A stretch of DNA of 64,000 nucleotides from Candidatus Uhrbacteria bacterium (GCA_943354605.1 CALRCK010000003.1:85609-149608), one strand, 5' to 3'; shown: positions 597-46,615, counted from the stretch's first letter. Notes: a model not told the origin generated them from the letters alone. Made by a program: numbers and translations.

Positions 597-676
597 GTCA
601 TCCTGAGTGCAACGAAGGATCTCTCGTAGGTGATCCGGATCACCTACGGAAGATTCTTCGCTTCGCTCAGAATGAC
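597..676. repeat. REP/MITE-like nested palindromic element, family 1 (GTCATCCTGAG...CTCAGAATGAC), copy 1
   Basis: Terminal inverted repeats GTCATCCTGAGTGCAACGAAGGATCT / AGATTCTTCGCTTCGCTCAGAATGAC flank an internal perfect palindrome CGTAGGTGATCCGGATCACCTACG. It lies between the tsaB stop and the GT2 start. Confidence 0.75.
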
Positions 677-1101
677 TGAGGCGAAATATTTCGTCGAAGC
701 GCGTCCTTCTTTGTGGCAGTAATCGTTGGTGCGTTTGCGTAGAGTGGACGAAGCATGGGAACCGAATGCGTGCCGGCGAGATCGATCAACGCGGCACGGT
801 CGTCCACTCCAGGAGCAAGTTCAATGCTGTACATCGGAATTGATTGCGTGAAGGCAAACGTATTCGCCCACGCCAATATCGTTCGAAGCGCGGTGGCCGA
901 TCCTGGACCAACAACGACAGCAAGATCGGAAATCGACTTCAGATCAATGCGCTGTTCACGAAGCCAGCTGTCGATAGTGAAGAGAAACTCTTCAGGACGA
1001 ACGCTGAATGTCTTTGGTGGAATCGCAAACGACGCGCGGTTTTCCGCAATGGCTCCGATGGTGAGTTTCGCGATGTCGGATCCATTCACGTACAGCATCA
1101 T
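667..1101 (-). CDS. tsaB: tRNA threonylcarbamoyladenosine biosynthesis protein TsaB-like (YeaZ family, C-terminally short)
   Basis: MMLYVNGSDIAKLTIGAIAENRAS...DLAVVVGPGSATALRTILAWANTFAFTQSIPMYSI matches the TsaB/Kae1-like N-terminal fold (GPGSFTG-type motif). Its start abuts the stop of the upstream gene. Confidence 0.55.
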   Translation of the reverse strand: MMLYVNGSDIAKLTIGAIAENRASFAIPPKTFSVRPEEFLFTIDSWLREQRIDLKSISDLAVVVGPGSATALRTILAWANTFAFTQSIPMYSIELAPGVDDRAALIDLAGTHSVPMLRPLYANAPTITATKKDALRRNISPQSF

Positions 1102-1757
1102 AGTTCTGGAAACGTGTTCCACAATACCACGCGCTTTGCATCAAGAATCGTTGCAAGGAATCGGTCGCCAACATCTTTGCGATACAAGAATTCCTCCTTT
1201 GGCATGGCGGTAAAGTTCACCTCTCGCGCAATGTCGCGCTCAAATTCGCGAATCGCGCCGGCAAGATGCTCCGGATCGATCGTTCCAACGATGAGAAGAT
1301 CAGTTGGGACGTTTGTCGCATCCACGAATCGGCCCGTGAGCAAAATGAGATCGATGTCGCCTTTCTCGCGCAAGACTCGAACAATCTCGCGATTCATCAG
1401 CACTGCCGCTTTTCGCATCACGCCGCGCAAATCTTCGAACAGAGGAAATTCCATGTTCGCACGATAGAATTTCTTCTTCTCTCCCTTTGTTTCCGGCTCG
1501 TCGTCTTTTGCCTCTGTTGGGATAATTTTCCCCTCAACTTCGAGCACCACGCCCACATCCACCAAATTCTTCAGCTCGCGGCGCACCGCGTTCAGCTGAG
1601 CATCAATCCGGCGGGTCAATTCACGCACGTAAAATGCGCGATCGGAATTCTCCAAAAACAACGTTAAGAGACGTGCCCTCGTTCGTGAACCAAAAAGTTG
1701 TTCAATGCGGAACTCTCCAGGTTTTGCTACTACTTCCGGCTCGTCGGTGTTATCCAT
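1098..1757 (-). CDS. Putative HTH transcriptional regulator with uncharacterised C-terminal domain
   Basis: 219 aa. N-terminal winged-helix-like segment (RTRARLLTLFLENSDRAFYVRELTRRIDAQLNAVRRELKNLVDVGVV), lysine-rich linker and a C-terminal alpha/beta domain. Divergently arranged with the 723-aa membrane protein gene. Confidence 0.4.
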   Translation of the reverse strand: MDNTDEPEVVAKPGEFRIEQLFGSRTRARLLTLFLENSDRAFYVRELTRRIDAQLNAVRRELKNLVDVGVVLEVEGKIIPTEAKDDEPETKGEKKKFYRANMEFPLFEDLRGVMRKAAVLMNREIVRVLREKGDIDLILLTGRFVDATNVPTDLLIVGTIDPEHLAGAIREFERDIAREVNFTAMPKEEFLYRKDVGDRFLATILDAKRVVLWNTFPEL

Positions 1758-1810
1758 AGAGGAGATCGCGTATATCGGAAACTACTACTATACTGTACGA
1801 GAAGAGACCT

Positions 1811-3982
1811 TTGTCCGCAACCAGCATCATGCCTGCCCCATTATACCGTTTGAAATCCGCAGAACTCCTTGTTCCAGGCACCACACCGGAACATTTGAGT
1901 ATTCGCACTATCCTTTTACCGCTTTCCCAAGGCCAAGGATCCGTTTTCGGGTTGATGGACATCACACACCGCGACAGCGAGGCTCGCGAGCGATTTCTGC
2001 ATATTATCGCCAGTCACCTGGAAGTGCTTCGCGCCGATATTGAGAAAGACGGTGGCAATGTGCCGCGCAGGTTTGAAGCCATGCTCGTCACGATGAATGC
2101 CGACATCGCTCGTCGTGTTGATGAAACAAATCTCTCACTCAAAAAGGCAAACATCCTCGTTGGCGTCATAACGAACACGCAAGTGTTCTTCAGTGGCATC
2201 GGCTCAAACCATGCGCTATTTCTCCATCGCACCGCAGAACGCCGATACGTGGTGTACGAACTTGACGCACAACTCGTGAGTGACGAAAATTCTCCGGAGA
2301 AGCCGCTTGTGACCGTTCTTGATGGCGAGCTCCACCCAGGCGACGTCTTTTATGCGGCACGTCGCATCCCGCCGCACGCGCTTTCGCTTGGTGATTTGCA
2401 AGACATTCTCGTGACACTCCCCCCACAAGGCGCGCTGGAACGCATCCAACAGTTTGTTCCGCCAACGGCACAATTTGGTGGGATCTGTTTTCATGTGAGC
2501 GAAGAGGAGCCACTTGGGCCGCCAAAGAAAGCGAACCCAATGGTGTCAATTTCGGATTTGGAAGAAACAAAGTCCCGAACTGCGGATCTGCTTGGCGAAC
2601 AAACGCCAGACGTTCCACAAAAACTCGCGCTTGGTTTAGCGTCCACAAAAAAATTCCTCGCAACCTACAGCGACAGCGCACTGTGGCGCGGAGTGAAGCG
2701 CGCTGGCCGATTCGCTATCGGCGCGATTGAGCGATTCCTCAAGCAAAAACCGGTCGGCGAAATGCGCACCGGTACCCGGATTGGCGGAAGCAACCATCGC
2801 GGCCGGTTTGGCGGCTTTGCCGGGCGGATTGATTCGTTGCGCCACGCAGGAATTACCGCTGTCAACGGCGCGTCGCGCACCACCAAAGTTGTTGGTGTCG
2901 GTGTTGCAATCGTCGTCGTGATTGTCGTGATGAGCATCGCGAATCGCCAGGCCGGACAGAGGGCTGCAGAAGAAAATGTCGCGTACCAATCTGCGTTAAC
3001 GAAAATCGAGGAAAAGCGCACCGCCGCAGAAGCCGCGATTATTTACGGCAACACTCAGGAAGCACAAACACTCGTCACCGATGCAACCAATCTTCTCGCA
3101 ACGCTTCCAAAAGACACTTCTGCACAAAAAACAAAAGCGGATGACCTGAGCCGCGCCCTTCAAGATTTACTTGGTCGAACGCGCGGCATGGAAACAGTTG
3201 TTCCAACGAAAATCGCGGAGCTTCCAGCACAATTCGCATTCCCGCTTGTTGGCATCACAAGTTCTGGTAACGCGCTCTATGGTATTACTGCCGACGCCGC
3301 ACCGTGGCGTGTGAATGAAGTAAGCAAGGCGATGGAACGCGTCGATGTTGGCCAAAGCCCAGCACAAAACATCATCATCACCGCCGGTGAAGGCGATAAT
3401 ATTCTTACCGTGGACATGGACAAGCGTTTGTGGCGCACCACGGTGGCAACGCCAGCAATCGCGTCGCTCACGAGCGGCATCGACGGCATGGCGAGTATTG
3501 AAGACATCTCCTCATACAACGACAACCTGTATGCCCTAAGCGCGACAAGCGGCCAAATCGTCAAGATGCGTCCACAAGGCCTAGGCTTTGAGGCGGGTAC
3601 GCCGTGGATTACCGCAAAGACGAGCGATCTCAGCCACGCGAAAGCGATCGCAATCGATGGAAGCGTATGGGTGCTAACGGATACGGACGTGGTCGTGTTT
3701 AAGAGCGGCCGCGAAACGCCATGGGATCATGCAAAGATTGATCCAGCAATCGTGAAACCGCTCGATATCTGGACGGACATCGACAGCAAATATCTCTACA
3801 TCCTGGACGGCAGCGACGGCCGCGTGGTGGTGATGGACAAAGACAAGGGCGGTATCGTTGCCCAATACGTCGCAAATCTCTCCGGAGTCGTCAGCTTCGT
3901 GGTTCGCGAAAGCGAGAATCGAATTCTCCTCACCACACCAACAGCAGTGTACTCGTACACGGCAACGCATTTATTGAAGTAA
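1811..3982 (+). CDS. Large membrane protein: N-terminal PP2C/SpoIIE-like domain, one TM helix, C-terminal beta-propeller-like repeats
   Basis: 723 aa. ILVGVITNTQVFFSGIGSNHALFL and LVTVLDGELHPGDVFYAAR resemble PP2C signature blocks. TM segment VVGVGVAIVVVIVVMSIA. C-terminal repeated motifs (YALSATSGQIVKM, VWVLTDTDVVVFKSG, LYILDGSDGRVVVMD). Confidence 0.55.
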   Translation: MSATSIMPAPLYRLKSAELLVPGTTPEHLSIRTILLPLSQGQGSVFGLMDITHRDSEARERFLHIIASHLEVLRADIEKDGGNVPRRFEAMLVTMNADIARRVDETNLSLKKANILVGVITNTQVFFSGIGSNHALFLHRTAERRYVVYELDAQLVSDENSPEKPLVTVLDGELHPGDVFYAARRIPPHALSLGDLQDILVTLPPQGALERIQQFVPPTAQFGGICFHVSEEEPLGPPKKANPMVSISDLEETKSRTADLLGEQTPDVPQKLALGLASTKKFLATYSDSALWRGVKRAGRFAIGAIERFLKQKPVGEMRTGTRIGGSNHRGRFGGFAGRIDSLRHAGITAVNGASRTTKVVGVGVAIVVVIVVMSIANRQAGQRAAEENVAYQSALTKIEEKRTAAEAAIIYGNTQEAQTLVTDATNLLATLPKDTSAQKTKADDLSRALQDLLGRTRGMETVVPTKIAELPAQFAFPLVGITSSGNALYGITADAAPWRVNEVSKAMERVDVGQSPAQNIIITAGEGDNILTVDMDKRLWRTTVATPAIASLTSGIDGMASIEDISSYNDNLYALSATSGQIVKMRPQGLGFEAGTPWITAKTSDLSHAKAIAIDGSVWVLTDTDVVVFKSGRETPWDHAKIDPAIVKPLDIWTDIDSKYLYILDGSDGRVVVMDKDKGGIVAQYVANLSGVVSFVVRESENRILLTTPTAVYSYTATHLLK

Positions 3983-4030
3983 ATACAAAACGCGAGCCCG
4001 TCATGCGGACTCGCGTTTTGGTTTCGTGAA

Positions 4031-4438
4031 TTATCGCAAGGAAATTTTGAACATCTTTTCTGGCATCTTTACCGAATACTCTCCAGGGCCCATCCATGCC
4101 ATGCCGATGGCTGCCGTGAGAAGAGTGAATTCGAATTCCCATCCGCCAGTGAATCCCATCTTCCACTTCATCGTGAGGATTGCACCAACCATCACCGCCG
4201 CCAATGCGTAGCCGGCGTAGCGAGTATATGCGCCAACGAGCATTGCTGCGCCGCCGAGGAGCTCGATGATTCCAACCACTACGCCAAGCCATCCTGGCAT
4301 ACCGAACTTCACAAACATCGCCATCACGCCCGCAACACTCGCAAGCTTCATTGCACCGTGGGTAATGAATACTGCCGCGAGCCCAAGACGAACACTGAGA
4401 AGTCCTGCGTCTGGTGTCGCCCATTTCATCTTGACCAT
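4031..4438 (-). CDS. doxX: DoxX family membrane protein
   Basis: MVKMKWATPDAGLLSVRLGLAAVFITHGAMKL... four predicted TM helices, DoxX-like. Confidence 0.7.
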   Translation of the reverse strand: MVKMKWATPDAGLLSVRLGLAAVFITHGAMKLASVAGVMAMFVKFGMPGWLGVVVGIIELLGGAAMLVGAYTRYAGYALAAVMVGAILTMKWKMGFTGGWEFEFTLLTAAIGMAWMGPGEYSVKMPEKMFKISLR

Positions 4439-4454
4439 ACAAAAGGCAAACTTC

Positions 4455-4570
4455 CCCATTTGGTCTAGTTTCGATTCACACCATCGCAAACTCGCTCAAC
4501 GTACCATGGAGTACGCCTCGCGAGTTTTGCTCGTCGTTCATCGAAACTAGCCTCAAATGTGAAAGTTCGA
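4455..4570 (-). repeat. Family-2 conserved ~110 bp hairpin element (copy A), sense orientation toward doxX start
   Basis: Shares ...CCATTTGG...GAAACTCGCTCAACGTAC..GTACGCCTCGCGAG...CTCAAATGTG with copies at 5672-5784, 29010-29125 and 38647-38715. It ends about 20 nt upstream of the doxX ATG. Confidence 0.7.
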
Positions 4571-4595
4571 TTAGGAATAATCGTAATCAGTGTAC

Positions 4596-4622
4596 CAAAA
4601 ACCCCAGCCTTACGCTGGGGCT
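4596..4622 (-). terminator. Rho-independent terminator after rplL
   Basis: Minus-strand hairpin CCCCAGCgtaagGCTGGGG followed by a T-run. Confidence 0.6.
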
Positions 4623-4630
4623 TTGTGGAC

Positions 4631-5014: not shown

Positions 5015-5036
5015 AAAAAGATAAATGATTTTTGAA

Positions 5037-6819: not shown

Positions 6820-7125
6820 ATGGCAATGGCAAATTGCGATCCCCGACCCACCCGTTCCAACCGCGGGATCCTGCTCGACAGCGACGACGCCCTCGTCGTC
6901 GTCGGGTTCACCCTCCCGATGCGGAAGTTCGGCGATGACCGGCAGGACGTCGTTGACCGCCGCGAGCCCGACGCCTGGCTCGCGGAACAGCGAGCGGAGC
7001 GCTACGAAGCATGGCTCTCCGCCCGACTCCGCGAGATCGCCGAGATCGCCACCTGTGCCGATGCGGGGTGGGACGACGGCATCCCCTGGGATCCCTTCGG
7101 CCTCGACCAACCCGCGAGCTGGTAG
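6820..7125 (+). CDS. Hypothetical small acidic protein in a high-GC island
   Basis: ATG at 6820 preceded by the SD GGAAGGAG (6807-6814). MAMANCDPRPTRSNRGILLDSDDALVVVGF...GWDDGIPWDPFGLDQPASW. GC about 65% with high GC3. Followed by its own terminator. Confidence 0.45.
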   Translation: MAMANCDPRPTRSNRGILLDSDDALVVVGFTLPMRKFGDDRQDVVDRREPDAWLAEQRAERYEAWLSARLREIAEIATCADAGWDDGIPWDPFGLDQPASW

Positions 7126-7225
7126 CCAACCAGCAGCGACACGACAGCGGGCGGAGAGAACGAGACCTCTCCGCCCACCCGCAGAGTTCATGATCAGCCG
7201 ATCGTGAGTTGTGCGAGTGAAATGC

Positions 7226-7257
7226 AAAACCGCCACCGAGATTTCGGTGGCGGTTTT
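7226..7257. terminator. Bidirectional rho-independent terminator
   Basis: AAAACCGCCACCGAgattTCGGTGGCGGTTTT, a perfect stem flanked by A and T runs. Confidence 0.75.
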
Positions 7258-7272
7258 GTCGTATGTGCTTCA

Positions 7273-7339
7273 GTCATCCCCGCGTAGGCGGGGATCCATC
7301 TCTCCGAACAGCCTGGATCCCCGCCTACGCGGGGATGAC
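7273..7339. repeat. Perfect 26-bp inverted repeat element (GTCATCCCCGCGTAGGCGGGGATCCA ... TGGATCCCCGCCTACGCGGGGATGAC), pristine member of the GTCAT..ATGAC family
   Basis: Arms at 7273-7298 and 7314-7339 are exact reverse complements. Each arm contains its own CCCCGC-GTAG-GCGGGG sub-hairpin. The termini match family-1 elements. Confidence 0.75.
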
Positions 7340-10956: not shown

Positions 10957-11036
10957 GTCACCCTGAGCGAAGCGAAGGGTCTCTCGTAGGTGAGATTTTC
11001 TCCCTGCGGAGATTCCTCGCCTACGCTCGGAATGAC
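10957..11036. repeat. REP/MITE-like nested palindromic element, family 1, copy 2
   Basis: GTCACCCTGAGCGAAGCGAAGGGTCTCTCGTAGGTGAG...CTCGCCTACGCTCGGAATGAC, between xseA and xseB. Source of the spurious HPERSEGSLVGE...ARND ORF. Confidence 0.75.
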
Positions 11037-14407: not shown

Positions 14408-14503
14408 GTCATGTTGAGCGAAGCGAAACATCTCCACAGGGAGAATCAGTAACCTGCGAGAGATTCTTACCCTCCGGGTATAAGTCACTTCGTTCAGAAT
14501 GAC
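14408..14503. repeat. REP/MITE-like nested palindromic element, family 1, copy 3
   Basis: GTCATGTTGAGCGAAGCGAAACATCTCC ... AAGTCACTTCGTTCAGAATGAC with a palindromic core. Confidence 0.7.
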
Positions 14504-14583
14504 GGACCCTTGATTTCCGCTTTCGAGGATGTCGTGTCCACACAACATTTCATTTGCAAAAATGCCAATGATTTCGAAGATCA

Positions 14584-14605
14584 GATGTCGTGTTGACACG
14601 ACATC
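14584..14605. promoter_or_regulatory. Perfect 22-bp palindrome (GATGTCGTG-TTGA-CACGACATC), candidate operator
   Basis: 9-bp perfect stem with a 4-nt loop and no flanking T-run. The half-site GATGTCGTGT recurs at 14529-14538. Located in the XRE/PPIase intergenic region. Confidence 0.3.
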
Positions 14606-14700
14606 CACAATATCACAAAACACACATGCCAGGCGCCGATCACGCCGCGGCGTTCGCCTTCTTCACATCCTTCAATGGTTCAGGCTTTTTCTCACATATA

Positions 14701-14735
14701 GGCGAGGCACGGTGGCCTCGCCTTTACTTTTATTT
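14701..14735 (+). terminator. Terminator-like hairpin readable on plus strand
   Basis: GGCGAGGCacggtgGCCTCGCC followed by TTTACTTTTATTT. Overlaps the PPIase stop. A plus-strand terminator here is unexpected given flanking minus-strand genes. Confidence 0.4.
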
Positions 14736-15365
14736 CACATCCTCAACCGTCACTTTTGTCATAACTTGATCTTCTACTGGCCGATCGTGTGCACCAGTCT
14801 GAGTTGCAGCGATCGCGTCAACAACGTCCATGCCCGATGTCACTTCGCCGAAAATGCTATAGGCATGTGGCAGTGGAACATCTTTGTGCATAATAAAAAA
14901 CTGGCTTCCGTTGGTATTTGGCCCAGCATTGGCCATCGCCACTGTTCCTCGCGTATACGTGTGGGTATCCGCAAGCTCGTCGGCAAACTTGTATCCCGGG
15001 CCGCCGGATCCGGTTCCTGTTGGATCACCGCCCTGAATCATGAATCCGCTAATCACTCGGTGAAAGATCAAGCCATCGTAATAGCCGTTGCTCGCCAAGT
15101 ACACAAAGTTCGAAACAGTCTTTGGCGCAGTGTCGTCGTACAGTTTAAAGACGATATCGCCTTTTTCCGTGGTAATGCGAACCTGCTTATTATGAATCTG
15201 CTCAGCAGGAAGCGCGCCTGGGAATGTCCATGTTTTCGTTTGCACAACAGGGGTTTGCGATGAAGAGTCTTGTGTCGCAGACGTTGTACCCGATGTGGAC
15301 GATGTTGTGCAACCCGCACCCATCAACAACAAAAACCCAGCGGTGATGATCAAAGAATGTTTCAC
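14730..15365 (-). CDS. Peptidyl-prolyl cis-trans isomerase, cyclophilin type (lipoprotein)
   Basis: Lipoprotein signal MKHSLIITAGFLLLMGAGC, then GYYDGLIFHRVISGFMIQGGDPTGTGSGGPGYKFADE...GTVAMANAGPNTNGSQFFI, canonical cyclophilin. Confidence 0.85.
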   Translation of the reverse strand: MKHSLIITAGFLLLMGAGCTTSSTSGTTSATQDSSSQTPVVQTKTWTFPGALPAEQIHNKQVRITTEKGDIVFKLYDDTAPKTVSNFVYLASNGYYDGLIFHRVISGFMIQGGDPTGTGSGGPGYKFADELADTHTYTRGTVAMANAGPNTNGSQFFIMHKDVPLPHAYSIFGEVTSGMDVVDAIAATQTGAHDRPVEDQVMTKVTVEDVK

Positions 15366-18620: not shown

Positions 18621-18832
18621 TTCTCACTACTGCCTACTTACTACTTACTACTGCCTATTTATGAACACCCGTCGGAGGACCGGAAATCGTTTCACTTTTT
18701 CCCTCAGTGAAATTCTCTCGTCACACATCCAAAAAGCCCGCAAGCATCGCAGTGCCCTCAAACCGCGCACTCAAGCACGACGGTTCGAGAATAATCTTCG
18801 ATTGCCTTTAGCGCTGCTGAATAAGAACTAGA

Positions 18833-19266
18833 GGTTTTAGGTTATAGGGGTTAGGTTTTAGTATTAAACGACTCACCTGTGAAAATTCTAAGTTATCGAG
18901 ACCTCATTGTCTGGCAAAAAGCCATGATTGCCGCAACGGAAACGTACAAGCTCACTACAGAGATGCCCCTAGAGGAACGGTACGGCCTCACATCGCAGAT
19001 GAGACGATCAGCCGTTTCAATTCCTTCGAATATCGCAGAAGGAAGCAAACGCTCATCAAAAAAAGATTATAAAAACTTTTTACGAATCGCTTTTGGATCT
19101 ACAGCGGAACTCGAGACGCAAATAGAACTTGGAGTTCGACTTACGTATTTTTCAAGATCGAATACCAATATCGTTAGCAATCTTCTTTCTGAAATCTCTA
19201 AAATGCTTCAATCAATTATCGCGAGGCTCGAATATCAATCTCCCGTCCCTTCTATAACCTAAAACC
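18833..19266 (+). mobile_element. AT-rich cassette bounded by 15-bp inverted repeats (GGTTTTAGGTTATAG) carrying a four-helix-bundle protein gene
   Basis: GGTTTTAGGTTATAG at 18833-18847 and its exact reverse complement at 19252-19266, with extra TAGGGG motifs. The interior is about 42% GC versus about 53% in the flanks. It lies between the lexA-associated sORF and dinB. Confidence 0.55.
18879..19262 (+). CDS. Four-helix-bundle protein (23S rRNA intervening-sequence protein / Avd-like family)
   Basis: MKILSYRDLIVWQKAMIAATETYKLTTEMPLEERYGLTSQMRRSAVSIPSNIAEGSKRSSKKDYKNFLRIAFGSTAELETQIELG matches the TIGR02436/PF05635 consensus. Confidence 0.8.
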   Translation: MKILSYRDLIVWQKAMIAATETYKLTTEMPLEERYGLTSQMRRSAVSIPSNIAEGSKRSSKKDYKNFLRIAFGSTAELETQIELGVRLTYFSRSNTNIVSNLLSEISKMLQSIIARLEYQSPVPSIT

Positions 19267-19284
19267 TATCCCCTAAAGCCTCGA

Positions 19285-20559
19285 ATGCCTCGCCTCATTC
19301 TGCACATTGATTTCAATTCCTTCTTTGCGTCCGTTGAGGCGCAGGCAAACCCCTTCCTTCGCGGGAAAGCGTTTGCGGTTGCCGGAAAAGGTAAAGGACG
19401 AATCGATCGCGAGGCAGGGGCAATCCAAGGCAAACGTACATCCATCAGCGAGCTCTCTCATTCACGATCGGTCGTGACCACCGCATCGCGCGAAGCCAAG
19501 AAACTCGGCGTGAAAACTGCGATAACGACGCACGAAGCGCAGCGCATCATTCCAAATCTTCCCATTATTCCCGGCGATCCTCGCAAATACGCGGAGGTCA
19601 CTCATCGATTCCTCAAGATTCTCCGCGAACACTGCGATGCCGTTGAACAGTTCAGTGTAGACGAAGCGTTTGCCGACATTACTACGGTTGCCGGCGACAA
19701 GTTCGGTGCGATCATGTTTGCACAAATTCTCCGATCGAAAATTCTCGACACCATCGGCGAAGCGTGCACAGCCTCGATCGGTATCGGTCCAAATAAAGTT
19801 GTCGCCAAACTTGCGAGTGAGCTCGTAAAACCCAACGGGATCACGTTCGTCGATCCGTCCGAAGTTGAATCTTTTGTCGCGGCTCGGAGCCTCCGCGATA
19901 TCTGCGGCATTGGACCTCGGCTCGGGAAACGGCTCACGAGTCTTGGCGTCACCACCATCCTCCACCTTCGCCAAACGCCAATGGATCGCCTCATCGCCGA
20001 ATTCGGCCCGCACACTGCAGAATTTCTTTGGAATGTTTCACGCGGAATTGGCGATGACGCCGTTATCGATTCCGCAACCGACGATCCAAAATCCGTCGGC
20101 CATTCCTACACGTTTCCCCACGGACTTGAAACCGATCAAGAAGTTCACGACAACCTTCTTGCACTTGCCGACATGGTTACGCAACGCTTACGAAATCAAA
20201 ACCTCTTTGCAACCCACGTGAACGTTTTTGCGCGATACGAAGACGGTGGAGGAAGCGGCACAAACGCCCAATTACCCGAAGCAACGAACGACGGTCTCAC
20301 GCTCTTCGAGCACGGATTCCGGTCCCTCCTACCCATCATCGATATCGATCGCGGCATCCGCCGCCTCGGTATCAATGCGACACAATTCGCGAATAAAATT
20401 CCCTCCCTCATTCCCGAACACAACGAACGCCACGATCGCTGCCTCACCGCCCTCGACCTCATCGCCAAACGCTTCGGCACCGGCGCCTGGCACAGAGCAA
20501 GCACGCTGAATACGGTTTTCTTAGAGCGAGTAAGTGGCTGGCATTACGATCATGAATGA
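19285..20559 (+). CDS. dinB: DNA polymerase IV (Y-family)
   Basis: ILHIDFNSFFASVEAQANPFLRGKAFAVAG..., the Y-family palm motif, plus little-finger region. 424 aa. Confidence 0.85.
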   Translation: MPRLILHIDFNSFFASVEAQANPFLRGKAFAVAGKGKGRIDREAGAIQGKRTSISELSHSRSVVTTASREAKKLGVKTAITTHEAQRIIPNLPIIPGDPRKYAEVTHRFLKILREHCDAVEQFSVDEAFADITTVAGDKFGAIMFAQILRSKILDTIGEACTASIGIGPNKVVAKLASELVKPNGITFVDPSEVESFVAARSLRDICGIGPRLGKRLTSLGVTTILHLRQTPMDRLIAEFGPHTAEFLWNVSRGIGDDAVIDSATDDPKSVGHSYTFPHGLETDQEVHDNLLALADMVTQRLRNQNLFATHVNVFARYEDGGGSGTNAQLPEATNDGLTLFEHGFRSLLPIIDIDRGIRRLGINATQFANKIPSLIPEHNERHDRCLTALDLIAKRFGTGAWHRASTLNTVFLERVSGWHYDHE

Positions 20560-21073: not shown

Positions 21074-21150
21074 TGGTGGACTGGACGAGATTCGAACTCG
21101 CAACTCTAAGATGACGATCCAAGTATGTTACCAATTAACACCACCAGCCC
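21074..21150 (-). tRNA. tRNA-like gene with canonical acceptor stem, D-arm and T-arm but a non-canonical anticodon arm (possible unusual tRNA or pseudogene)
   Basis: Minus-strand GGGCTGG-TG-GTGTtaattggtaACAT...GCGAGTTCGAATCTCGT-CCAGTCC-A-CCA: 7-bp acceptor stem (one G-U), TTCGAAT T-loop, encoded CCA, and a TATAAT box about 20 nt upstream. The 17 nt between the D-arm and variable loop (CTTGGATCGTCATCTTA) do not form a 5-bp stem by eye. Confidence 0.45.
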
Positions 21151-24590: not shown

Positions 24591-25821
24591 AGACCGCGAC
24601 GCCCTTCACCACGCGAATGAACGCACTTCGCCACGGAAGAACGGAAAAGAAATATCGTGCGTCGACGAATCGTCGAAGGATGTATGCAGTATACCCCCAA
24701 ATTGGAACACCGAGCGCTCTGCCGACGGCATACTTTCCTCCAAGCGCAATGAGAATATCCCATGACGCACGTTGTCGGTACGGCAACACTGGACGCTTCG
24801 TCACCATCGCGACAATATTCCTTGCCACGACAATGGACTGCTCAACCGCAACTTGTGCCGTCTGCGGATCAGGATATTTTCCCTCCTTCACGTATGCAGC
24901 ATCGCCGAGCACAAAAATGTCTCGATATTCAAGCGTCCGCAACGCATCGTCCACCAATATTCTCCCCTTTGGGTGCCGCTCGAATGGAAGCGACGCAACA
25001 ATCTCCGGCATTTTTACTCCAAGCGCAGTGACACAATACTCACACGACACGGTTTCAATTTTTTCAGCGGGAACGCCTTTCACGATTCGTTTTAATCCAA
25101 CAGAATGCTCAGCGACGTTCGCAAGCGCCGTATTCATTCGCAACACAACACCAAGATCACGAAGGCGAGCTTGCGTTTTCTTTCGGAGAAATGGTGAGAG
25201 CATCTTCAGCGGTTCGTTTCCGGAATCGATGAGCATCACTTCCACAGATCGAGCGCTCAGCGCGCCGCGTTTTTCCAGCGCACGAATCGTTGACGCGCAT
25301 TCTGCGGCAAACTCTGTTCCGTTCGCACCAGCACCAGCGATCACGATTCTTCGTTGTTTCGCCGAAGTGTCCTGCATGATGTTTGAAAGCTCCGTTCGGA
25401 TCATGAGTGCATCGCTCGTTCGCTTCAAATCCGTTGCGAATTGCTTGGCGCCAGGAATACCGAAATCATGTGACACACTTCCCACGGCAAGAACACAAAT
25501 ATCGTACGGAATTGCCGATCCGTCCGCACAGACAACGTTTCGCATTACAGGATCAATCGACTGCATTGCGCACCTTCGAAACCGGATCCCTGAGAACCGA
25601 TCAAGCATGATGTCTGTTGCACGGACAAGATCGCCCCGAAGGGAATCGTCGAGGATTCCACCAGAGGCAACTTCATACAACCACGGCGTGTACACGGATG
25701 CGGACGATGGATCAACAATCGTCACCGCGATGCGATTCGAAACCGACGACCGCACCAATCGACGCGCGACGCTAAAGCCACCAAAACCACCGCCAACAAT
25801 CACGATTCGAGTCTGTGTCAT
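24568..25821 (-). CDS. ndh: Type II NADH dehydrogenase (NDH-2 family FAD-dependent oxidoreductase)
   Basis: MTQTRIVIVGGGFGGFSVARRL Rossmann motif and a second motif IFVLGDAAYV. The longer ORF extension upstream is encoded by the adjacent REP element and was rejected. Confidence 0.8.
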   Translation of the reverse strand: MTQTRIVIVGGGFGGFSVARRLVRSSVSNRIAVTIVDPSSASVYTPWLYEVASGGILDDSLRGDLVRATDIMLDRFSGIRFRRCAMQSIDPVMRNVVCADGSAIPYDICVLAVGSVSHDFGIPGAKQFATDLKRTSDALMIRTELSNIMQDTSAKQRRIVIAGAGANGTEFAAECASTIRALEKRGALSARSVEVMLIDSGNEPLKMLSPFLRKKTQARLRDLGVVLRMNTALANVAEHSVGLKRIVKGVPAEKIETVSCEYCVTALGVKMPEIVASLPFERHPKGRILVDDALRTLEYRDIFVLGDAAYVKEGKYPDPQTAQVAVEQSIVVARNIVAMVTKRPVLPYRQRASWDILIALGGKYAVGRALGVPIWGYTAYILRRFVDARYFFSVLPWRSAFIRVVKGVAVYGKNETP

Positions 25822-25837: not shown

Positions 25838-25915
25838 GTCATTGCGAGGAGGGTAATCCCGACGCGGCAATCCAGGTTCATCTAGGTTGCTTCGTTGCAC
25901 TCGCAATGACGGATG
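25838..25915. repeat. REP/MITE-like nested palindromic element, family 1b (GTCATTGCGAGG...CTCGCAATGAC), copy 4
   Basis: Arms are reciprocally identical to the element at 45988-46073 in opposite orientation. It supplies a cryptic ATG to the ndh ORF. Confidence 0.75.
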
Positions 25916-32874: not shown

Positions 32875-33789
32875 ATGGACGGCGCCATGACGATTTTCGA
32901 ACTCCTCGCATGGGCCGGCGATGCGCTGAAAGCTGCCGATGCAACGCGCTCTGTGAAACAAAACCCTCGCCTTGATGCGCAGGTGTTATTGTCCTACGTC
33001 CTTGGCGTGAACAGCGCGTACCTTTTTACGCATGGCGATGAAACCGTGAAGTCGCAAGACGCAGAAACGTTTCAGCGCCTTGTTGCGCGCCGAGCTCGAC
33101 ACGAACCCGTCGCGTACCTCACCCAAACCAAAGCATTCTTCGGCCGCGATTTCTTCGTCAATCAACACGTCCTCATTCCACGACCCGACACAGAAATTTT
33201 AGTCGAGGCCGCACTCGGCGTGATCGATTTCCGATCGACCATCGTCGACATCGGCACCGGCAGCGGCGCGATCGCAATTTCGCTCGAACTTGAAACCCAT
33301 CGCCCAACATTCGCTATCGAGATTGATCGCGACACCAAAGCGGTCGCCGAACACAATGCGCGAAATCTCGGCGCGAACATTACCTTCCTTGACGGCTCCC
33401 TCTTCGAGCCGTTCGTAAACCTCGCAATAAACGACCTGACCCCTTTTCAAAATTCTCATCTCGTCATCACCGCCAACCTTCCGTACCTCACGCCGTGGCA
33501 GTGGGAAGCGCTCGATCCCGATGTGAAAAATTACGAGCCAAAACTCGCACTCGTCGGCGGTGCCGATGGCTTGGCGCTATACGACGAACTGTGCAACCAA
33601 ATCCGAACCTACCTTCACGAAGCATCACGCAAAGGCAAGCGTATCGCCGTCGATCTTGTCATCGAAATCGACCCGTCCCAAAAGCTCACCGCCCCCGCTC
33701 TTCTGAAATCCCACTTCCCTTCTGCCGCCATCAAAACCATCCGCGATCTCACACACCGCGAACGCGTCGTTGTCGCGTCGATACGGTAA
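32875..33789 (+). CDS. prmC: Release factor glutamine N5-methyltransferase
   Basis: IVDIGTGSGAIAISLEL (SAM motif I) and TANLPYL (NPPY-type motif). Immediately downstream of prfA. Confidence 0.85.
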   Translation: MDGAMTIFELLAWAGDALKAADATRSVKQNPRLDAQVLLSYVLGVNSAYLFTHGDETVKSQDAETFQRLVARRARHEPVAYLTQTKAFFGRDFFVNQHVLIPRPDTEILVEAALGVIDFRSTIVDIGTGSGAIAISLELETHRPTFAIEIDRDTKAVAEHNARNLGANITFLDGSLFEPFVNLAINDLTPFQNSHLVITANLPYLTPWQWEALDPDVKNYEPKLALVGGADGLALYDELCNQIRTYLHEASRKGKRIAVDLVIEIDPSQKLTAPALLKSHFPSAAIKTIRDLTHRERVVVASIR

Positions 33790-40742: not shown

Positions 40743-40765
40743 AAGGGGTCAGGTCGTTTATTGCC
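40743..40765 (+). repeat. Solo copy of the 22-bp repeat AAAGGGGTCAGGTCGTTTATTGC (same as the inverted repeats flanking the Y1 transposase at 59658/60553)
   Basis: Exact 21/22 match. Sits at the junction between the gyrB stop and the high-GC PNP island. Confidence 0.7.
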
Positions 40766-41693: not shown

Positions 41694-41718
41694 AACGTAC
41701 AACGCGTCACACACGAAC

Positions 41719-42162: not shown

Positions 42163-42164
42163 GT

Positions 42165-42710: not shown

Positions 42711-42728
42711 ATCAAAATCCTCCGATCA

Positions 42729-42767
42729 AAAACGACCGTTCCGAGCTATCGGAGCGGTCGTTTTGTT
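42729..42767 (+). terminator. nusG-rplK intergenic attenuator/terminator hairpin
   Basis: GACCGTTCCGagctatCGGAGCGGTC followed by GTTTTGTTG, with a TTGACT -35-like hexamer directly after. Confidence 0.55.
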
Positions 42768-42863
42768 GACTATTTCCGCCAATACTGGCACACTTTCCGC
42801 ACTTATTAACGACGTGGTCGCTTGGGTAAATCCCCAGGAATCCACTATAAATACTCACTCGTT

Positions 42864-43289
42864 ATGGCAAAGAAGATCAAAGCGGTGATCAAAGTCCAGT
42901 CAATCGGAGGTCGGGCAACACCAGCACCTCCACTCGGACCAGCACTCGGTGCACAGGGTGTGAACATTCAGCAGTTCGTGCAGGAATTCAATGCACAAAC
43001 ACAGGACCGCATGGGAGAGACTGTTCCAGCGATCATCACCATTTACGAAGACCGCACGTTCAGCTTTATCCTGAAGACCGCTCCAGCGAGCGACTTAGTG
43101 AAGAAAGCAATCGGCCTTGAAAAGGGATCCGGAAAGCCACTCACCGAAAAAGTGGGGAAAATCACCCAAGCACAGTTGAGAGAAGTTGCCATGAAGAAAA
43201 TGCCAGACCTCAACACCACAAACGTAGAGGCTGCCATGAAGATCATTGCAGGAACGTGCCGACAGATGGGAGTCGATGTCGTCGCGTAA
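42864..43289 (+). CDS. rplK: 50S ribosomal protein L11
   Basis: [43 protein letters not shown] is canonical L11. Confidence 0.95.
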
Positions 43290-43323
43290 TGATATCCTTG
43301 GGAAAGATTCTTATCTTTACCCT

Positions 43324-43608
43324 ATGGATGCCCACAAACGTTCTTGGCCAAGTTACTTCACCGTCGTGTCGTTTATTACTGGAATGCTCGTGCTTTTTGG
43401 AGCCATTGGTCTTGTCACGAGCAGCCTTCATCTCCTCGTCCCAGCCGCAAATGTTATTGGGAGCCGAGACACCCTTGAAACCGTTCGCCAAAATCTTCTC
43501 GATAAGCTCGTTGACAGTACCAGCCTTCTCATCGTGAGCGCTCCACTGTTCTGGCTCCACTTCCGCTTTTTCCTTCGTCAATGGGAAAAGCAACACAAAG
43601 AAAAATAA
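43324..43608 (+). CDS. Candidate small two-TM membrane protein in the unusually long rplK-rplA spacer (speculative)
   Basis: Same strand as the flanking genes. TM helices SWPSYFTVVSFITGMLVLFGAIGLV and SLLIVSAPLFWLHFRFF. Overlapping alternative-frame ORFs exist, so this call is weak. Confidence 0.3.
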   Translation: MDAHKRSWPSYFTVVSFITGMLVLFGAIGLVTSSLHLLVPAANVIGSRDTLETVRQNLLDKLVDSTSLLIVSAPLFWLHFRFFLRQWEKQHKEK

Positions 43609-43674
43609 CCCCTAATCTTGTGGGAGATCGATTCGATCGCTATCACCACAAACAACCCTATGATCGGTAAGCGA

Positions 43675-44346
43675 ATGGCTACGGCAAAGCAGATGATCGA
43701 CAAAAAGAAACTGTACGCTGTGAAAGACGCTGTTGCGCTTTTGAAAGAAACCGCAAAGGCAAAGTTCGACGAAACGGTTGAATTGCACTTCGCGCTTGGA
43801 ATCGATCCAAAGCAAGGCGACCAGCAGATCCGTGGAACCGTCACGTTGCCACACGGCACCGGTAAGACGAAGCGTGTCATTGCGTTCGTGGACGCAAACA
43901 ACGAAGCTGCAGCAAAGGCAGCAGGCGCAGACATTGTTGGAACCGAAGAAGTCCTCGAAACGATTATCCGCACCGGAAAGATCGACTTCGACGTTGCTGT
44001 TGCTGTTCCAAGCATGATGCCAAAGCTTGCAAAGGCAGCAAAAATTCTTGGCCCTCGCGGTTTGATGCCAAACCCAAAGACCGACACCGTTGGTCCAAAC
44101 ATTGGGAAGATCATCGAAGAGCAGAAGGGTGGAAAGGTTGCATTCAAGAACGATAACACCGCCAACGTGCACATGATTGTGGGAAAGGCCTCGTTCAGCC
44201 CAGAGAATCTTGTTGCAAACCTTGCAACAGCGATTGAAGCCATCCGCAAGGTAAAACCAGCGTCAAGTAAGGGCATCTACATGAAGTCGGTCACCATGAC
44301 TTCAACGATGGGCCCAGCAATTAAGCTTGACCAGGCATCGGTCTAA
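43675..44346 (+). CDS. rplA: 50S ribosomal protein L1
   Basis: MATAKQMIDKKKLYAVKDAVALLKETAKAKFDETVELHFALGIDPKQGDQQIRGTVTLPHGTGK is canonical L1. Confidence 0.9.
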   Translation: MATAKQMIDKKKLYAVKDAVALLKETAKAKFDETVELHFALGIDPKQGDQQIRGTVTLPHGTGKTKRVIAFVDANNEAAAKAAGADIVGTEEVLETIIRTGKIDFDVAVAVPSMMPKLAKAAKILGPRGLMPNPKTDTVGPNIGKIIEEQKGGKVAFKNDNTANVHMIVGKASFSPENLVANLATAIEAIRKVKPASSKGIYMKSVTMTSTMGPAIKLDQASV

Positions 44347-44380
44347 GGTAGTAGAGCGTAGGCCGTTGGCAGTAGCCAGA

Positions 44381-44416
44381 AATCCCCTCGATTCGAAAGA
44401 ATTCGAGGGGATTTTG
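44381..44416 (+). terminator. Rho-independent terminator after rplA
   Basis: AATCCCCTCGAAttcgaaagaaTTCGAGGGGATT followed by TTGG, a 12-bp stem. Confidence 0.65.
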
Positions 44417-44425
44417 GTTGTCCAC

Positions 44426-45061
44426 ATGATCAATTATGCATCTCCTGGATCACTGCTAAACTCGGGGCATATGTCGTCGCCCTATCACGATCCATTCGGT
44501 CCAGGGAGCAACGTGGAAAAGCGCTGCGTCGCGGATCAGGAAAAGCTCCGCGTGCTCGTTGAAAGCCTCAAGGCGCTTGGAATGAAGATCGTCCTCACCC
44601 AAGGCGTGTACGACCTTATTCACGAAGGCCACGCAGCGTACTTGGAAAAGGCGAAGTCACTTGGCGATATTCTTATCGTCGGAGTCGATTCCGACGAACT
44701 GACGAAAATCCGCAAAGGGCCAAAGCGACCAATTGTTCCACAGGCGGAGCGCATCAACATGCTCCTCCACCTGCGCCACGTGGACTTGGTAACGATCAAA
44801 GAAGCCCACCACGGAATTGGCGACATCATTGAAATCGTGAAGCCCGATGTTATGGTCTTTTCGTCGTCCACCACCGATATCGGACCAATCGATGTTGAAG
44901 GATACAAACAACATTGCGGAGAGATTGTCGTTCTTCCACCGCAAGCAACAACAACGACAACAGCACGCGTTCGCAATCTCACCATCGAAGGCGTTGAAGA
45001 CCTCGCAAAAGAAGTAAATACACTGATGACGAATTTCGTGACGAAAATTCGCGAAGGCTAA
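44426..45061 (+). CDS. Cytidylyltransferase-like nucleotidyltransferase domain protein (HxGH family)
   Basis: LTQGVYDLIHEGHAAYLEKAKSLGDILIVGVDSD is the HxGH nucleotidyltransferase motif (RfaE-II/TagD-like). Confidence 0.6.
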   Translation: MINYASPGSLLNSGHMSSPYHDPFGPGSNVEKRCVADQEKLRVLVESLKALGMKIVLTQGVYDLIHEGHAAYLEKAKSLGDILIVGVDSDELTKIRKGPKRPIVPQAERINMLLHLRHVDLVTIKEAHHGIGDIIEIVKPDVMVFSSSTTDIGPIDVEGYKQHCGEIVVLPPQATTTTTARVRNLTIEGVEDLAKEVNTLMTNFVTKIREG

Positions 45062-45062
45062 T

Positions 45063-45986
45063 ATGCTCATCGCGTTCGTTCCGGTTTTACACAAGGGCTA
45101 CATCGACCTTTTCAAAAAATATCCCGACACCCTCGGCATTCTTGGCGCTGACGTCATTGCCGACTTCACATCACTCACTCGCGACTGCCGCGTGGTTGAT
45201 CCTGAGGCGATGAAGCTTGCGATCGAAAGTCTCGGGATTTTTTCATCGGTTCGCGTGCTTTCGAAATCGGATCTCGCTTCGGTCGCGTGGGGTCCTGTCG
45301 CCTCGGACCCCGTTGGTGCTCAAACCGACGGGGCGGTTTTGCGCGCCACCGGGGACCTCCCTCGGCGCCACCCCGTGCTCCCTTCGCTCGAATCAATTCG
45401 ATTCATCATGCCAGACGAAGACGTGTCGCGCGCGCTCGCGGAACAATACAACATTCCCGATGTTACGTTTGAATCGGTTTTCCTCCGCTGGGACAAAATG
45501 CCGACACTGCGCGAAAATATCATCGCACCACATCGAAAGATCACCACAGATGTGTTCGTAAAATCGATGATGAACCTCGCAATTGCAGAATCGATAAAAA
45601 GCTCTGATTGGTGGCGCCAGATTGGAACCGCAATTGTGAGAGACGGCGCAGTCATTGCGCTCAGCCACAACAAGCACCTCCCCACCGATTACCATCTTGC
45701 GATCAATGGCGATCCGCGAACAATTTTTGATGCCGGCCAGCACATCGATATTGCAACATCCATCCATTCCGAAGCGCTTGCCGTTGCCCAAAGCGCAAAA
45801 ACCGGCACGTCGCTCAACGGCGCCGAGGCGTTCGTTACCACATTTCCCTGTCCAAACTGTGCACGTTTGCTTGCCGAAGCCGGAATCAAAACCGTGTATT
45901 ACCACAAGGGCTATTCCCTACTCGATGCTGAAGAAATCTTGAAAGCGTACGGAGTCGAAATTATATTGGTTGATCCGACAAAATAA
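45063..45986 (+). CDS. dCMP/CMP deaminase-family protein with uncharacterised N-terminal domain containing a GC-rich in-frame insertion
   Basis: C-terminal HSEALAVAQ...TTFPCPNCARLLAEAGIKTVYY has the zinc-binding H(A/S)E and PCxxC motifs. The N-terminal ~170 aa are unknown and include the 45275-45395 GC-rich hairpin segment. Confidence 0.6.
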   Translation: MLIAFVPVLHKGYIDLFKKYPDTLGILGADVIADFTSLTRDCRVVDPEAMKLAIESLGIFSSVRVLSKSDLASVAWGPVASDPVGAQTDGAVLRATGDLPRRHPVLPSLESIRFIMPDEDVSRALAEQYNIPDVTFESVFLRWDKMPTLRENIIAPHRKITTDVFVKSMMNLAIAESIKSSDWWRQIGTAIVRDGAVIALSHNKHLPTDYHLAINGDPRTIFDAGQHIDIATSIHSEALAVAQSAKTGTSLNGAEAFVTTFPCPNCARLLAEAGIKTVYYHKGYSLLDAEEILKAYGVEIILVDPTK

Positions 45987-45987
45987 G

Positions 45988-46073
45988 CGTCAGTCATTGC
46001 GAGGCTGTAATCAGCCGAAGCAATCTAGGCTACCCTGGATTGCCGCGTCGGGATTACCCTCCTCGCAATGACA
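45988..46073. repeat. REP/MITE-like nested palindromic element, family 1b, copy 5
   Basis: GTCATTGCGAGGCTGTAATCAGCCGAAGCAATCTAGG...CCTGGATTGCCGCGTCGGGATTACCCTCCTCGCAATGAC. Confidence 0.75.
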
Positions 46074-46080
46074 CATTTTA

Positions 46081-46524
46081 TTAACCGATACGGGTGCGTA
46101 AACCTAGTGCAGGATCGTAACTGGTGTCATCGGGATTAGACTGCACGAGGTTCGCATGAAGATGCGTCACTGACGCGCCAGTGAATCGCGTTTCCCCAAA
46201 TCGCATCAAAAACGTTCCGCCCACCATTGTGGTATCGCCGACCAGCTCTTGAATGATTCCGTACAGCTCAGCCCACGCCTCGGGAATAATTTTCGAAACG
46301 TGATCGATGTGCTCCGTGTGAATGATGAGTTTGTGATGCTTCGACGGCGTATACGGAAATTGATTATCGGTCACAATCCAAAACTTCCAGCGCGTCATCG
46401 GTAATTTATGAAACTCCGCAAGGCGCTCTGGGCAAAACGGGCAAACATTTTGCGCGGCAATACCGGCAATCACCTTGTCGTATCCTCCCGGTCGCGCATT
46501 CTGCTGATTGACAAAGTCACTCAT
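46081..46524 (-). CDS. HIT (histidine triad) family protein
   Basis: VTHLHANLV carries the HxHxHxx motif. Flanked on both sides by family-1b repeats in direct orientation. Confidence 0.75.
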   Translation of the reverse strand: MSDFVNQQNARPGGYDKVIAGIAAQNVCPFCPERLAEFHKLPMTRWKFWIVTDNQFPYTPSKHHKLIIHTEHIDHVSKIIPEAWAELYGIIQELVGDTTMVGGTFLMRFGETRFTGASVTHLHANLVQSNPDDTSYDPALGLRTRIG

Positions 46525-46537
46525 AATATCTTTTTCG

Positions 46538-46615
46538 TCTTTGCGAGGCTGTCATCGGCCGAAGCAATCTCGGTTCACCTGGATTGCCGCGTCGCGATGA
46601 CGCTCCTCGCAATGA
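46538..46615. repeat. REP/MITE-like nested palindromic element, family 1b, copy 6 (termini slightly degenerate)
   Basis: GTCTTTGCGAGGCTGTCATCGGCCGAAGCAATCTCGG...CCTGGATTGCCGCGTCGCGATGACGCTCCTCGCAATGATG. Confidence 0.7.

Follow-up and report, generated by a model that had tools for sequence, protein, structure and literature searches.

GTC-tagged hairpin pairs at gene junctions of a Candidatus Uhrbacteria genome as members of the CGTC-REP and Ssn-related-motif family

A 64,000-nt stretch of the genome of a Candidatus Uhrbacteria bacterium (GCA_943354605.1 CALRCK010000003.1:85609-149608), referred to as the window, carries seven short nested palindromes between its genes, which raises the question of whether these elements are mobile and, if so, what copies them. 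The original prediction took them for a family resembling repetitive extragenic palindromes (REPs) or miniature inverted-repeat transposable elements (MITEs), and named a Y1 gene in the same window, similar to REP-associated tyrosine transposases (RAYTs), as a plausible mobiliser. We find that the elements are new members, in a genome of the candidate phyla radiation (CPR), of the known family of CGTC-tagged REPs and Ssn-related motifs (SRMs), which is cross-phylum rather than lineage-specific. Both the prior descriptions (CGTC-type REPs and Ssn-related motifs) and the spread over many phyla had been overlooked. We consider it likely that the elements are tags-outward pairs of GTC-tagged hairpins of this CGTC-REP/NTS-SRM family, copied in trans by an Ssn-type nuclease.

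CGTC-tagged REPs were described by Di Nocera, De Gregorio and Rocco (2013; PMC3733652) as repeats with a CGTC tag or its variants TGTC and CCTC, a stem of 8–9 bp opening with A-T and then T-A, a loop of 4–5 nt and a CCA-like tail. They are mostly found as head-to-head dimers, occur in several phyla, have no dedicated or flanking transposase and include dRS3 of Neisseria as well as RPE-4 and RPE-6 of Rickettsia. The authors raised the possibility that the formation of CGTC repeats has ceased, and read the spread over many phyla as ancient. The second line of work concerns NTS (CGTCATTCCCGCGMAVGCGGGAATCYRG), an oriented hairpin of Neisseria that is bound and cut by SsnA, a GIY-YIG protein of 94 aa (Chenal et al., 2025; PMC11893778). 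SsnA acts on NTS only as single-stranded DNA (ssDNA) and only on one strand, and it does not bind RNA. SRM hairpins were found near 71% of ssnA homologs across phyla in that study, which raised the analogy with mobile elements and did not demonstrate mobility.

Architecture and conservation of the hairpin modules

All seven elements were found where the original prediction had placed them, with small corrections to the ends of elements 5, 6 and 7 (Table 1). Each is a dimer of two inverted modules that flank a short variable spacer, giving 14 modules in 7 dimers with the tags pointing outward in all of them. A module consists of an unpaired GTC tag, a stem opening with A-T, a loop or inner mini-hairpin, and a tail of 3 nt. 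The claim of a palindrome within a palindrome thus held for every copy, as each arm of each element is itself a hairpin; in the copy at 7273 the repeat finder returned perfect arms of 26 nt. The CGAAGC core that had been ascribed to all copies is absent from element 2, and this claim is therefore true only in part.

Three module types could be distinguished. Type A (elements 1, 3 and 4) follows the pattern GTCA-YNNT-GA-GCGAAGC-GA-ANNR-TCTC, in which an outer stem and tandem G-A pairs enclose a GCGAAGC mini-hairpin. Type B (elements 5, 6 and 7) reads GTC-ATTGC-GAGG-[inner hairpin]-GA(A/C)G-GCAAT, and the NTS-like type (element 2) reads GTC-ATCCCCGC-GTAG-GCGGGGAT-CCA. The second module of element 5, GTCATTGCGAGTGCAACGAAGCAACCTA, is mosaic, with its stem of type B and its loop of type A. 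The GTC tag is intact in 12 of the 14 modules, and in element 7 both termini are mutated (GTCtTT... and aTCATT...). The tails are CTC (6 modules), CCA (5), CTA (2) or CTT (1), so that the unpaired 3-nt tail of the CGTC REPs is present here as well. The base before GTC is C in six modules, A in five, G in two and T in one, compared with T in 167 (81%) and C in 31 of 206 module instances from other genomes.

As ssDNA all seven elements fold into one long end-to-end hairpin, with z-scores between -2.3 and -11.5 relative to dinucleotide shuffles. The strongest fold is that of element 2 (-35.4 kcal/mol, z = -11.5), and the weakest of the seven is that of element 4 (z = -2.3); the z-scores of element 1 (arms of 40 nt at 83%) and element 6 are -6.8 and -6.6, respectively. 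The modules are also far from what chance would provide. The A-type pattern has 4 matches in the window against 0.01 expected, and GTCATTGCGAG with at most one mismatch has 8 matches against 2.3 expected, a number reached by none of 100 shuffles. GTCA followed by a 5-bp hairpin occurs 23 times (10.6 ± 3.9 expected), and 13 of these 23 matches lie within the elements.

The two arms of one element often differ in their stems while each remains self-paired (ATCCT/AGGAT vs ATTCT/AGAAT; ACCCT/AGGGT vs ATTCC/GGAAT). Since each arm keeps its own pairing in spite of these differences, the conserved object is the local hairpin and not the long palindrome. The same could be seen in the 206 instances of GTCAYNNTGAGCGAAGCGAANNRTCT collected from other genomes by a pattern that does not constrain the N positions: 197 of them carry one of seven full Watson-Crick stems (TTC/GAA, TCC/GGA, TGT/ACA, CCC/GGG, TGC/GCA, TAC/GTA or CTC/GAG), where pairing at both N positions would be expected by chance in about 1 of 16. 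Stem pairs outside the Watson-Crick rules are rare and mostly G-T on the tag strand (6, vs 1 A-C), an excess that may be an indirect sign of strand-specific binding and cleavage of the hairpin as ssDNA.

Modules of the same kind are widespread. The A-type pattern of 26 nt was found in stretches of at least 120 GTDB species-representative genomes from many phyla, the matches listed including Acidobacteriota, Chloroflexota, Bacteroidota, Nitrospirota, Planctomycetota, Verrucomicrobiota, Gemmatimonadota, Bacillota, Cyanobacteria, Spirochaetota, several Proteobacteria and other Patescibacteria, and in 51 viral-contig stretches. These matches are often the same tags-out dimers. Their neighbours are unrelated housekeeping or phage genes, as expected of dispersed repeats, and among 132 neighbouring open reading frames (ORFs) of module-bearing loci compared with Pfam no gene family was enriched. 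The left module of element 4 is identical to modules in a Bacteroidaceae metagenome-assembled genome (MAG) and to modules beside an ssn gene in another metagenomic locus (L189). In the Bacteroidaceae MAG this module, GTCATGTTGAGCGAAGCGAAACATCTC, is part of each unit of a tandem array of at least seven units of 105 bp (L058, 3460-4240). Two loci from one IMG/VR contig (L013 and L034; 2808606664_000001) contain dense arrays of half-modules, with TGTCATGTTGAG every ~20 nt, interleaved with full dimers, which suggests that the tag and the 5' half-stem can multiply alone.

The relation to NTS is closest for element 2. Its module AGTCATCCCCGCGTAGGCGGGGATCCAT (7272-7299) matches the published SRM search motif, HGTCWYN(0-2)YYVSBRHN(0-5)WNVSBRGN(0-2)RNCYNB, and the partner module fails at the first base only. 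The original prediction expected copies elsewhere in the genome, and two further single NTS-like modules were indeed found on the same contig outside the window (Table 1). One of them, CCGTCATCCCCGCGCAGGCGGGGATCCAG, is a single compensatory pair away from the Neisseria NTS consensus and, judging by the called genes, seems to be located within a GT4 glycosyltransferase gene. A literature search with the literal module strings returned primer coincidences only.

Table 1. Coordinates and context of the hairpin dimers, the single modules and the Y1-associated features; positions are those of the window unless a contig is named
Feature	Position	Structure	Context or support
Element 1	597-676	Head-to-head dimer; A-type modules 597-623 (+) GTCATCCTGAGTGCAACGAAGGATCTC and 650-676 (-) GTCATTCTGAGCGAAGCGAAGAATCTT; central palindrome 624-649	Between tsaB stop and glycosyltransferase start, both genes on - strand
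Element 2	7273-7339	Head-to-head dimer; NTS/dRS3-like modules GTCATCCCCGCGTAGGCGGGGATCCA at 7273-7298 (+) and 7314-7339 (-)	Between stop of Big_7 protein gene and conserved terminator-like hairpin 7225-7258
Element 3	10957-11036	Head-to-head dimer; A-type modules 10957-10983 (+) GTCACCCTGAGCGAAGCGAAGGGTCTC and 11009-11036 (-) GTCATTCCGAGCGTAGGCGAGGAATCTC	Between xseA and xseB, same strand, one operon
Element 4	14408-14503	Head-to-head dimer; left A-type module 14408-14434 (+) GTCATGTTGAGCGAAGCGAAACATCTC; right module 14460-14503 (-), loop expanded to 29 nt	Spacer between peptidyl-prolyl isomerase (PPIase) and helix-turn-helix (HTH_3) genes, 56 nt upstream of the HTH_3 gene, both genes on - strand
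Element 5	25838-25910	Head-to-head dimer; B-type module 25838-25874 (+) GTCATTGCGAGGAGGGTAATCCCGACGCGGCAATCCA; second module 25883-25910 (-) GTCATTGCGAGTGCAACGAAGCAACCTA	Between DoxX stop and ndh start
Element 6	45993-46072	Head-to-head dimer; B-type modules 45993-46027 (+) GTCATTGCGAGGCTGTAATCAGCCGAAGCAATCTA and 46036-46072 (-) GTCATTGCGAGGAGGGTAATCCCGACGCGGCAATCCA	Between convergent dCMP-deaminase-like and HIT-like genes
Element 7	46537-46616	Decayed head-to-head dimer; B-type modules 46537-46571 (+) GTCtTTGCGAGGCTGTCATCGGCCGAAGCAATCTC and 46580-46616 (-) aTCATTGCGAGGAGCGTCATCGCGACGCGGCAATCCA	Between thyA-folA stop and HIT-like start
Single NTS-like modules	L179 15598-15620 (-) and 19684-19706 (+)	Single modules	Same contig, 3.8 kb and 7.9 kb beyond window start
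Y1/RAYT-like gene	59708-60559		Pfam PF01797, E = 7e-14; NCBIfam REP_Tyr_transpos, 90 bits vs cut-off 80
Second repeat family AAAGGGGTCAGGTCGTTTATTG	59663-59679 (+) and 60554-60570 (-)	Perfect inverted repeat	Flanks the Y1 gene
Second repeat family AAAGGGGTCAGGTCGTTTATTG	40747-40763 (+) and 33425-33441 (-)	Solo copies	

Insertion into tight gene junctions

The intergenic placement that had been claimed was found for all seven elements: six have same-strand genes on either side, one has convergent genes and none has divergent genes. The window is part of a 171-kb ENA metagenome contig (ERZ27280315:k141_168332), and its protein homologs indicate as host an Uhrbacteria-like MAG of the CPR/Patescibacteria. 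The window was compared with the contigs of syntenic relatives, whose proteins are 96%, 87% and 85% (XseA) and 94%, 88% and 82% (ThyA) identical to those of the window. The site of element 1 comprises ~115 nt in the window vs 1 nt in L175, where the tsaB and glycosyltransferase genes overlap, and that of element 2 is a block of 102 nt vs 3 nt in L174; the element is absent from L178 as well. The spacer between xseA and xseB, which holds element 3, measures 105 nt here and 3, 3 and 9 nt in L174, L175 and L177, respectively. Three of the six compared sites are overlapping or 1–9 nt same-strand junctions in the relatives, which identifies the elements as insertions.

As the original prediction had it, the HIT-like gene is enclosed by elements 6 and 7, which share one orientation. 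The site of element 6 is empty in L263 and L264, where the genes overlap, and in L265, which has an unrelated spacer of 51 nt. Element 7 occupies the junction between thyA and the HIT-like gene, which measures 2 nt in L264 and 1 nt in L265. The closest relative in this part of the genome is L263, with a ThyA that is 94% identical; there an A-type dimer (7047-7128), ~85% identical to element 3, stands at the junction where the window has the B-type element 7. The junction may therefore have been hit twice independently, or one element may have been replaced by another. The HIT-like gene itself was rejected as a cassette or partner, given that it holds the same position in relatives without the elements.

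Elements 1, 2, 3, 6 and 7 are accordingly absent from the alignable orthologous sites of the relatives. The matching spacers of element 4 in L175 and L177 contain no module and were not alignable. The relatives have one single module and one dimer in ~109 kb (0–1 copies in the 10–21 kb of each), compared with seven dimers in the 64-kb window. The elements were inserted after the split from the sequenced relatives, and in their presence and absence at orthologous spacers they behave as inserted DNA and as a real family, as the original prediction had supposed. The target-site signature that it had proposed to search for in the flanks did not appear: at the five loci where filled and empty sites were compared there was neither a target-site duplication nor a shared or co-mobilised flank, so that the classical hallmark of a MITE is lacking.

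The comparison with relatives bears directly on two other explanations. That the elements are ancient, fixed structural palindromes, such as protein-binding or domain-boundary sites inherited vertically and not mobile, seems very improbable to us. Such a reading would agree with the wide phylogenetic spread of the family that Di Nocera et al. (2013) took as ancient, whereas the elements are missing from every orthologous site examined in the relatives, copy numbers are low there, a member of another subfamily sits at the same junction in L263, and element 2 is a perfect palindrome.

The second is a role at the RNA level, with the hairpins kept for transcript function as terminators, as mRNA stabilisers or processing sites, or as translational insulators. 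It would agree with the placement of six elements between same-strand genes and one between convergent genes, where they should be transcribed, and with the A-rich linker that separates the hairpin from the next start codon downstream at elements 3, 5 and 7. The predominance of G-T among the stem mispairs of the tag strand is a further point in its favour, and Di Nocera et al. (2013) argue likewise for REPs. We nevertheless regard it as an improbable main function. None of elements 1–4 scored as an intrinsic terminator, the T-run of the coding strand being on the wrong side and A-rich sequence following the hairpin, and the relatives manage with junctions of 1–9 nt, which speaks against a conserved regulatory need. 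Rfam 15 returned no family at the gathering score, and at E ≤ 10 there were just generic miRNA-like and snoRNA-like hairpin matches, none of them a family for the elements. The conservation of the module with its unpaired tag across phyla, beside unrelated genes, points instead to a protein that reads the sequence, and SsnA does not bind RNA. An effect on RNA that is secondary to insertion into operons is possible.

Insertion has consequences for annotation. The peptides HPERSEGSL, RFAQND and SLRGCNQPKQSRL were confirmed by translation to be read-throughs of the elements. The 195-aa ORF at 92-679 (+) is spurious and is held open by running through element 1; relatives and called genes place the true gene on the - strand, with the glycosyltransferase start near 572. 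The cryptic ATG that element 5 had been said to supply to ndh turned out to be two in-frame ATGs, through which the ndh ORF is lengthened by 20 codons, and the real start is probably the ATG at 25821. Another ORF, at 14529-15263 (+), is likewise spurious, the true gene being the PPIase gene on the - strand (14730-15323). In the long spacer next to it, element 4 is adjoined by an imperfect inverted repeat (14511-14622; 51 nt, 73% complementary, arms 10 nt apart).

Candidate agents of copying

Because the published SRM motif does not cover the A and B types, their link to ssn was tested directly by neighbourhood. In two loci (L047 and L091) an ssn homolog is directly flanked by A-type modules. 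More generally, GTC-tagged hairpins were found within 300 nt of the gene in 60 of 80 metagenomic ssn loci, and on both sides of it in 43 of the 80. They include exact modules of the window, such as GTCATGTTGAGCGAAGCGAAACAT, as well as B-like forms that have either an inner hairpin or a stem of ATTGC/GCAAT. The density of modules is 3.8 per kb near ssn, 0.38 elsewhere in the same loci and 0.21 in shuffled sequence, a tenfold local enrichment. With no gene family enriched beside the modules at large, the link to Ssn was drawn from the literature and from targeted tblastn searches. On viral contigs ssn was found by the pattern method at only 4 loci, too few to argue that phages supply it.

From these observations a working scheme may be outlined. 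The working unit would be the single module, with its (N)GTC tag, A-T-opening stem, small loop or inner mini-hairpin, and 3-nt tail (CTC or CCA), and its hairpin would form in ssDNA on one strand only. If it behaves like the characterised members of the family, this hairpin would be bound as ssDNA by an Ssn-family GIY-YIG nuclease (single-domain, ~95 aa, cd10448) and cut just upstream of the tag, the ssn gene itself typically being flanked by modules in an SRM-ssn-SRM arrangement. The dimers of the window would represent a gene-less, MITE- or REPIN-like form made of two inverted modules and a short spacer, copies of which may have entered narrow gaps between genes in this Patescibacteria genome. 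As the driver of such copying we consider most likely an Ssn-type nuclease that acts in trans, from a gene at another place in the genome or on an incoming mobile element, and host repair or replication would follow the action of the nuclease. We infer both the action of Ssn on the elements in this organism and the copying mechanism itself. Once inserted, the elements would be co-transcribed in operons such as xseA-xseB, and a secondary effect on mRNA structure or translation may follow.

Several points weigh against this explanation. No ssn homolog was found in 79.5 kb of the contig (the window and a further 15.4 kb) or in 108 kb of the relatives, using tblastn and a profile hidden Markov model built from 80 Ssn sequences (best E-value 0.23), and the cognate nuclease of this organism is at present a candidate only. 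One of the 14 modules fits the published SRM motif and the A and B types do not, so that for these types it is the neighbourhood analysis just described that suggests the link to Ssn. The base before the tag departs from that of the broad sample, and cleavage by SsnA is sensitive to upstream sequence. Ssn has been demonstrated as a nuclease and not as a transposase, and no paper demonstrates copying of SRMs by Ssn. The inserted blocks carry 9–25 nt of unrelated filler on each side, which fits no clean known transposition chemistry. Finally, "recent" is a relative term, as the closest relative, at 96% amino-acid identity in XseA, shares only ~81% nucleotide identity.

The other candidate is the Y1 gene at 59708-60559, the presence of which was confirmed. 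According to this alternative the dimers are REPINs that are mobilised by the Y1 protein through single-strand cleavage beside the hairpin, as in REP/REPIN-RAYT systems. The architecture would suit it, since in all seven elements two hairpin units in inverted orientation fold together as one long hairpin. The Y1 protein passes the NCBI model for REP-associated tyrosine transposases and, as read from its sequence, has an HUH motif (HYH) and a RAYT-like tyrosine motif, "LRYTVLNP". The 9-mer ATTGCGAGG is found both in the B-type modules and in the interior of the repeat that flanks the Y1 gene (8 occurrences vs 0.67 expected), and constitutes the only hint of a link between the gene and the elements.

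The Y1 gene, however, carries an inverted repeat of its own, AAAGGGGTCAGGTCGTTTATTG, also written GGGGTCAGGTCGTTTATTG, which is unrelated to the GTC elements and gives the gene the arrangement of a TIRtron; no GTC module flanks it. One solo copy of this repeat stands directly after the gyrB stop, and the other lies in frame within the prmC coding region. The tag of the elements is GTC rather than the GT[AG]G of RAYT-associated REPs, and in none of the species studied by Di Nocera et al. (2013) did CGTC repeats flank a tyrosine transposase. No homolog of Y1 was present in 1.33 Mb of module-bearing loci from other genomes. The module types of the window flank ssn genes in other genomes. REPIN/RAYT pairs are also described as vertically inherited, while the GTC module spans many phyla. 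The Y1 gene is thus an unlikely partner of the elements, its proposed part as their mobiliser is not supported, and we give mobilisation of the dimers as REPINs a low probability.

A gene for a four-helix-bundle protein of the 23S rRNA intervening-sequence type (18879-19262; TIGR02436, E = 1e-35) was considered as a partner too and rejected, as it has unrelated inverted repeats of its own. It is bracketed by inverted TTAGG-like repeats within a block of 474 nt (18823-19296) that is missing from L175 and L177, where 18–27 nt are found, and it looks like a separate small mobile cassette. At 21077-21150 (-) the window has an Rfam tRNA match (37.3 bits vs a gathering score of 29) with an irregular-looking anticodon region containing CGTCAT; ARAGORN finds no tRNA in the window.

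If an Ssn-type nuclease is the copying agent, a bolder version of the preferred explanation can be formulated, which we put forward tentatively and hold to be rather doubtful. The GTC-tagged dimers would be an actively copying, gene-less mobile element with an Ssn engine in trans that phages or other mobile DNA may supply, and would thus be a nuclease-driven analogue of REPIN/RAYT with a preference for stop/start junctions of co-directional genes. If true, it would explain the hits by two subfamilies at the thyA-HIT junction, the near-identical modules across phyla and the expansion in a reduced CPR genome, and it would answer the question of the mobiliser of CGTC repeats that Di Nocera et al. 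(2013) left open.

The family has been known since 2013 and the link to Ssn since 2025. To this the present locus adds clean pairs of filled and empty sites in Patescibacteria, with insertions in operon junctions that overlap or measure 1–9 nt, and one junction hit by two subfamilies. It also adds very common module variants (the GAGCGAAGCGAAG loop type and the inner-hairpin types) that are missed by the published SRM motif yet flank ssn. For the annotation of MAGs it is of practical interest that the elements create spurious ORFs and false start codons, such as the 195-aa ORF and the 20 additional codons of ndh. CPR cells are believed to rely on scavenged DNA, and the repeats could, speculatively, shape gene flow in these organisms, provided that Ssn acts on the DNA that such cells import.

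Comparison with known systems

The elements resemble the CGTC REPs (Di Nocera et al., 2013). They share with them the unpaired tag ending in GTC, the 3-nt tail (CCA or CTC) and the predominance of head-to-head dimers, together with the location in gaps between same-strand or convergent genes, the lack of a flanking transposase gene and the occurrence in several phyla. With regard to the stem with its A-T/T-A start and to the loop, both modules of element 2 fit (8 bp, loop GTAG), whereas the A type fits only if the tandem G-A/A-G pairs are counted (loop CGAAG or TGCAA). The B type differs in having a 5-bp outer stem with a long inner hairpin, and so does the right module of element 4 with its 29-nt loop. 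C and T do not dominate the position ahead of GTC here, and the host belongs to the CPR, a group outside that survey. The copies in this genome were moreover inserted after the split from relatives, although the authors had suggested that formation may have ceased.

The Neisseria NTS (Chenal et al., 2025) is matched almost exactly by element 2 and by the two single modules elsewhere on the contig, at a distance of one compensatory stem pair. The oriented hairpin and the conserved 5' flank are the same, and the A and B types flank metagenomic ssn homologs as SRMs do. The differences are that the dimers are gene-less here, that no ssn was found in the 79.5 kb of contig, and that modulation of transformation is a role shown in Neisseria.

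With REPIN-RAYT systems (Bertels and Rainey, 2011; PMC3116915; Ton-Hoang et al., 2012; PMC3333891) the elements have in common that they are inverted pairs of hairpins, non-autonomous, intergenic and multi-copy, with a hairpin that would be recognised as ssDNA by a small protein of the nuclease type, encoded by a gene that itself has the repeats on its flanks. In contrast to these systems, the candidate partner is a GIY-YIG nuclease and not an HUH/Y1 protein, the sequence is cross-phylum and not lineage-specific, and the RAYT-like gene of the window carries another repeat.

That gene finds its own counterpart in the TIRtrons (TIRYT) of Di Nocera et al. (2013; PMC3733652). As in these, it is flanked by long terminal inverted repeats with GGGGTCAG, which fits GGGGWSAS, and extra solo copies of the repeat occur. 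The Y1 repeat family is unrelated to the seven elements, which explains why the Y1 gene is an unlikely partner for them.

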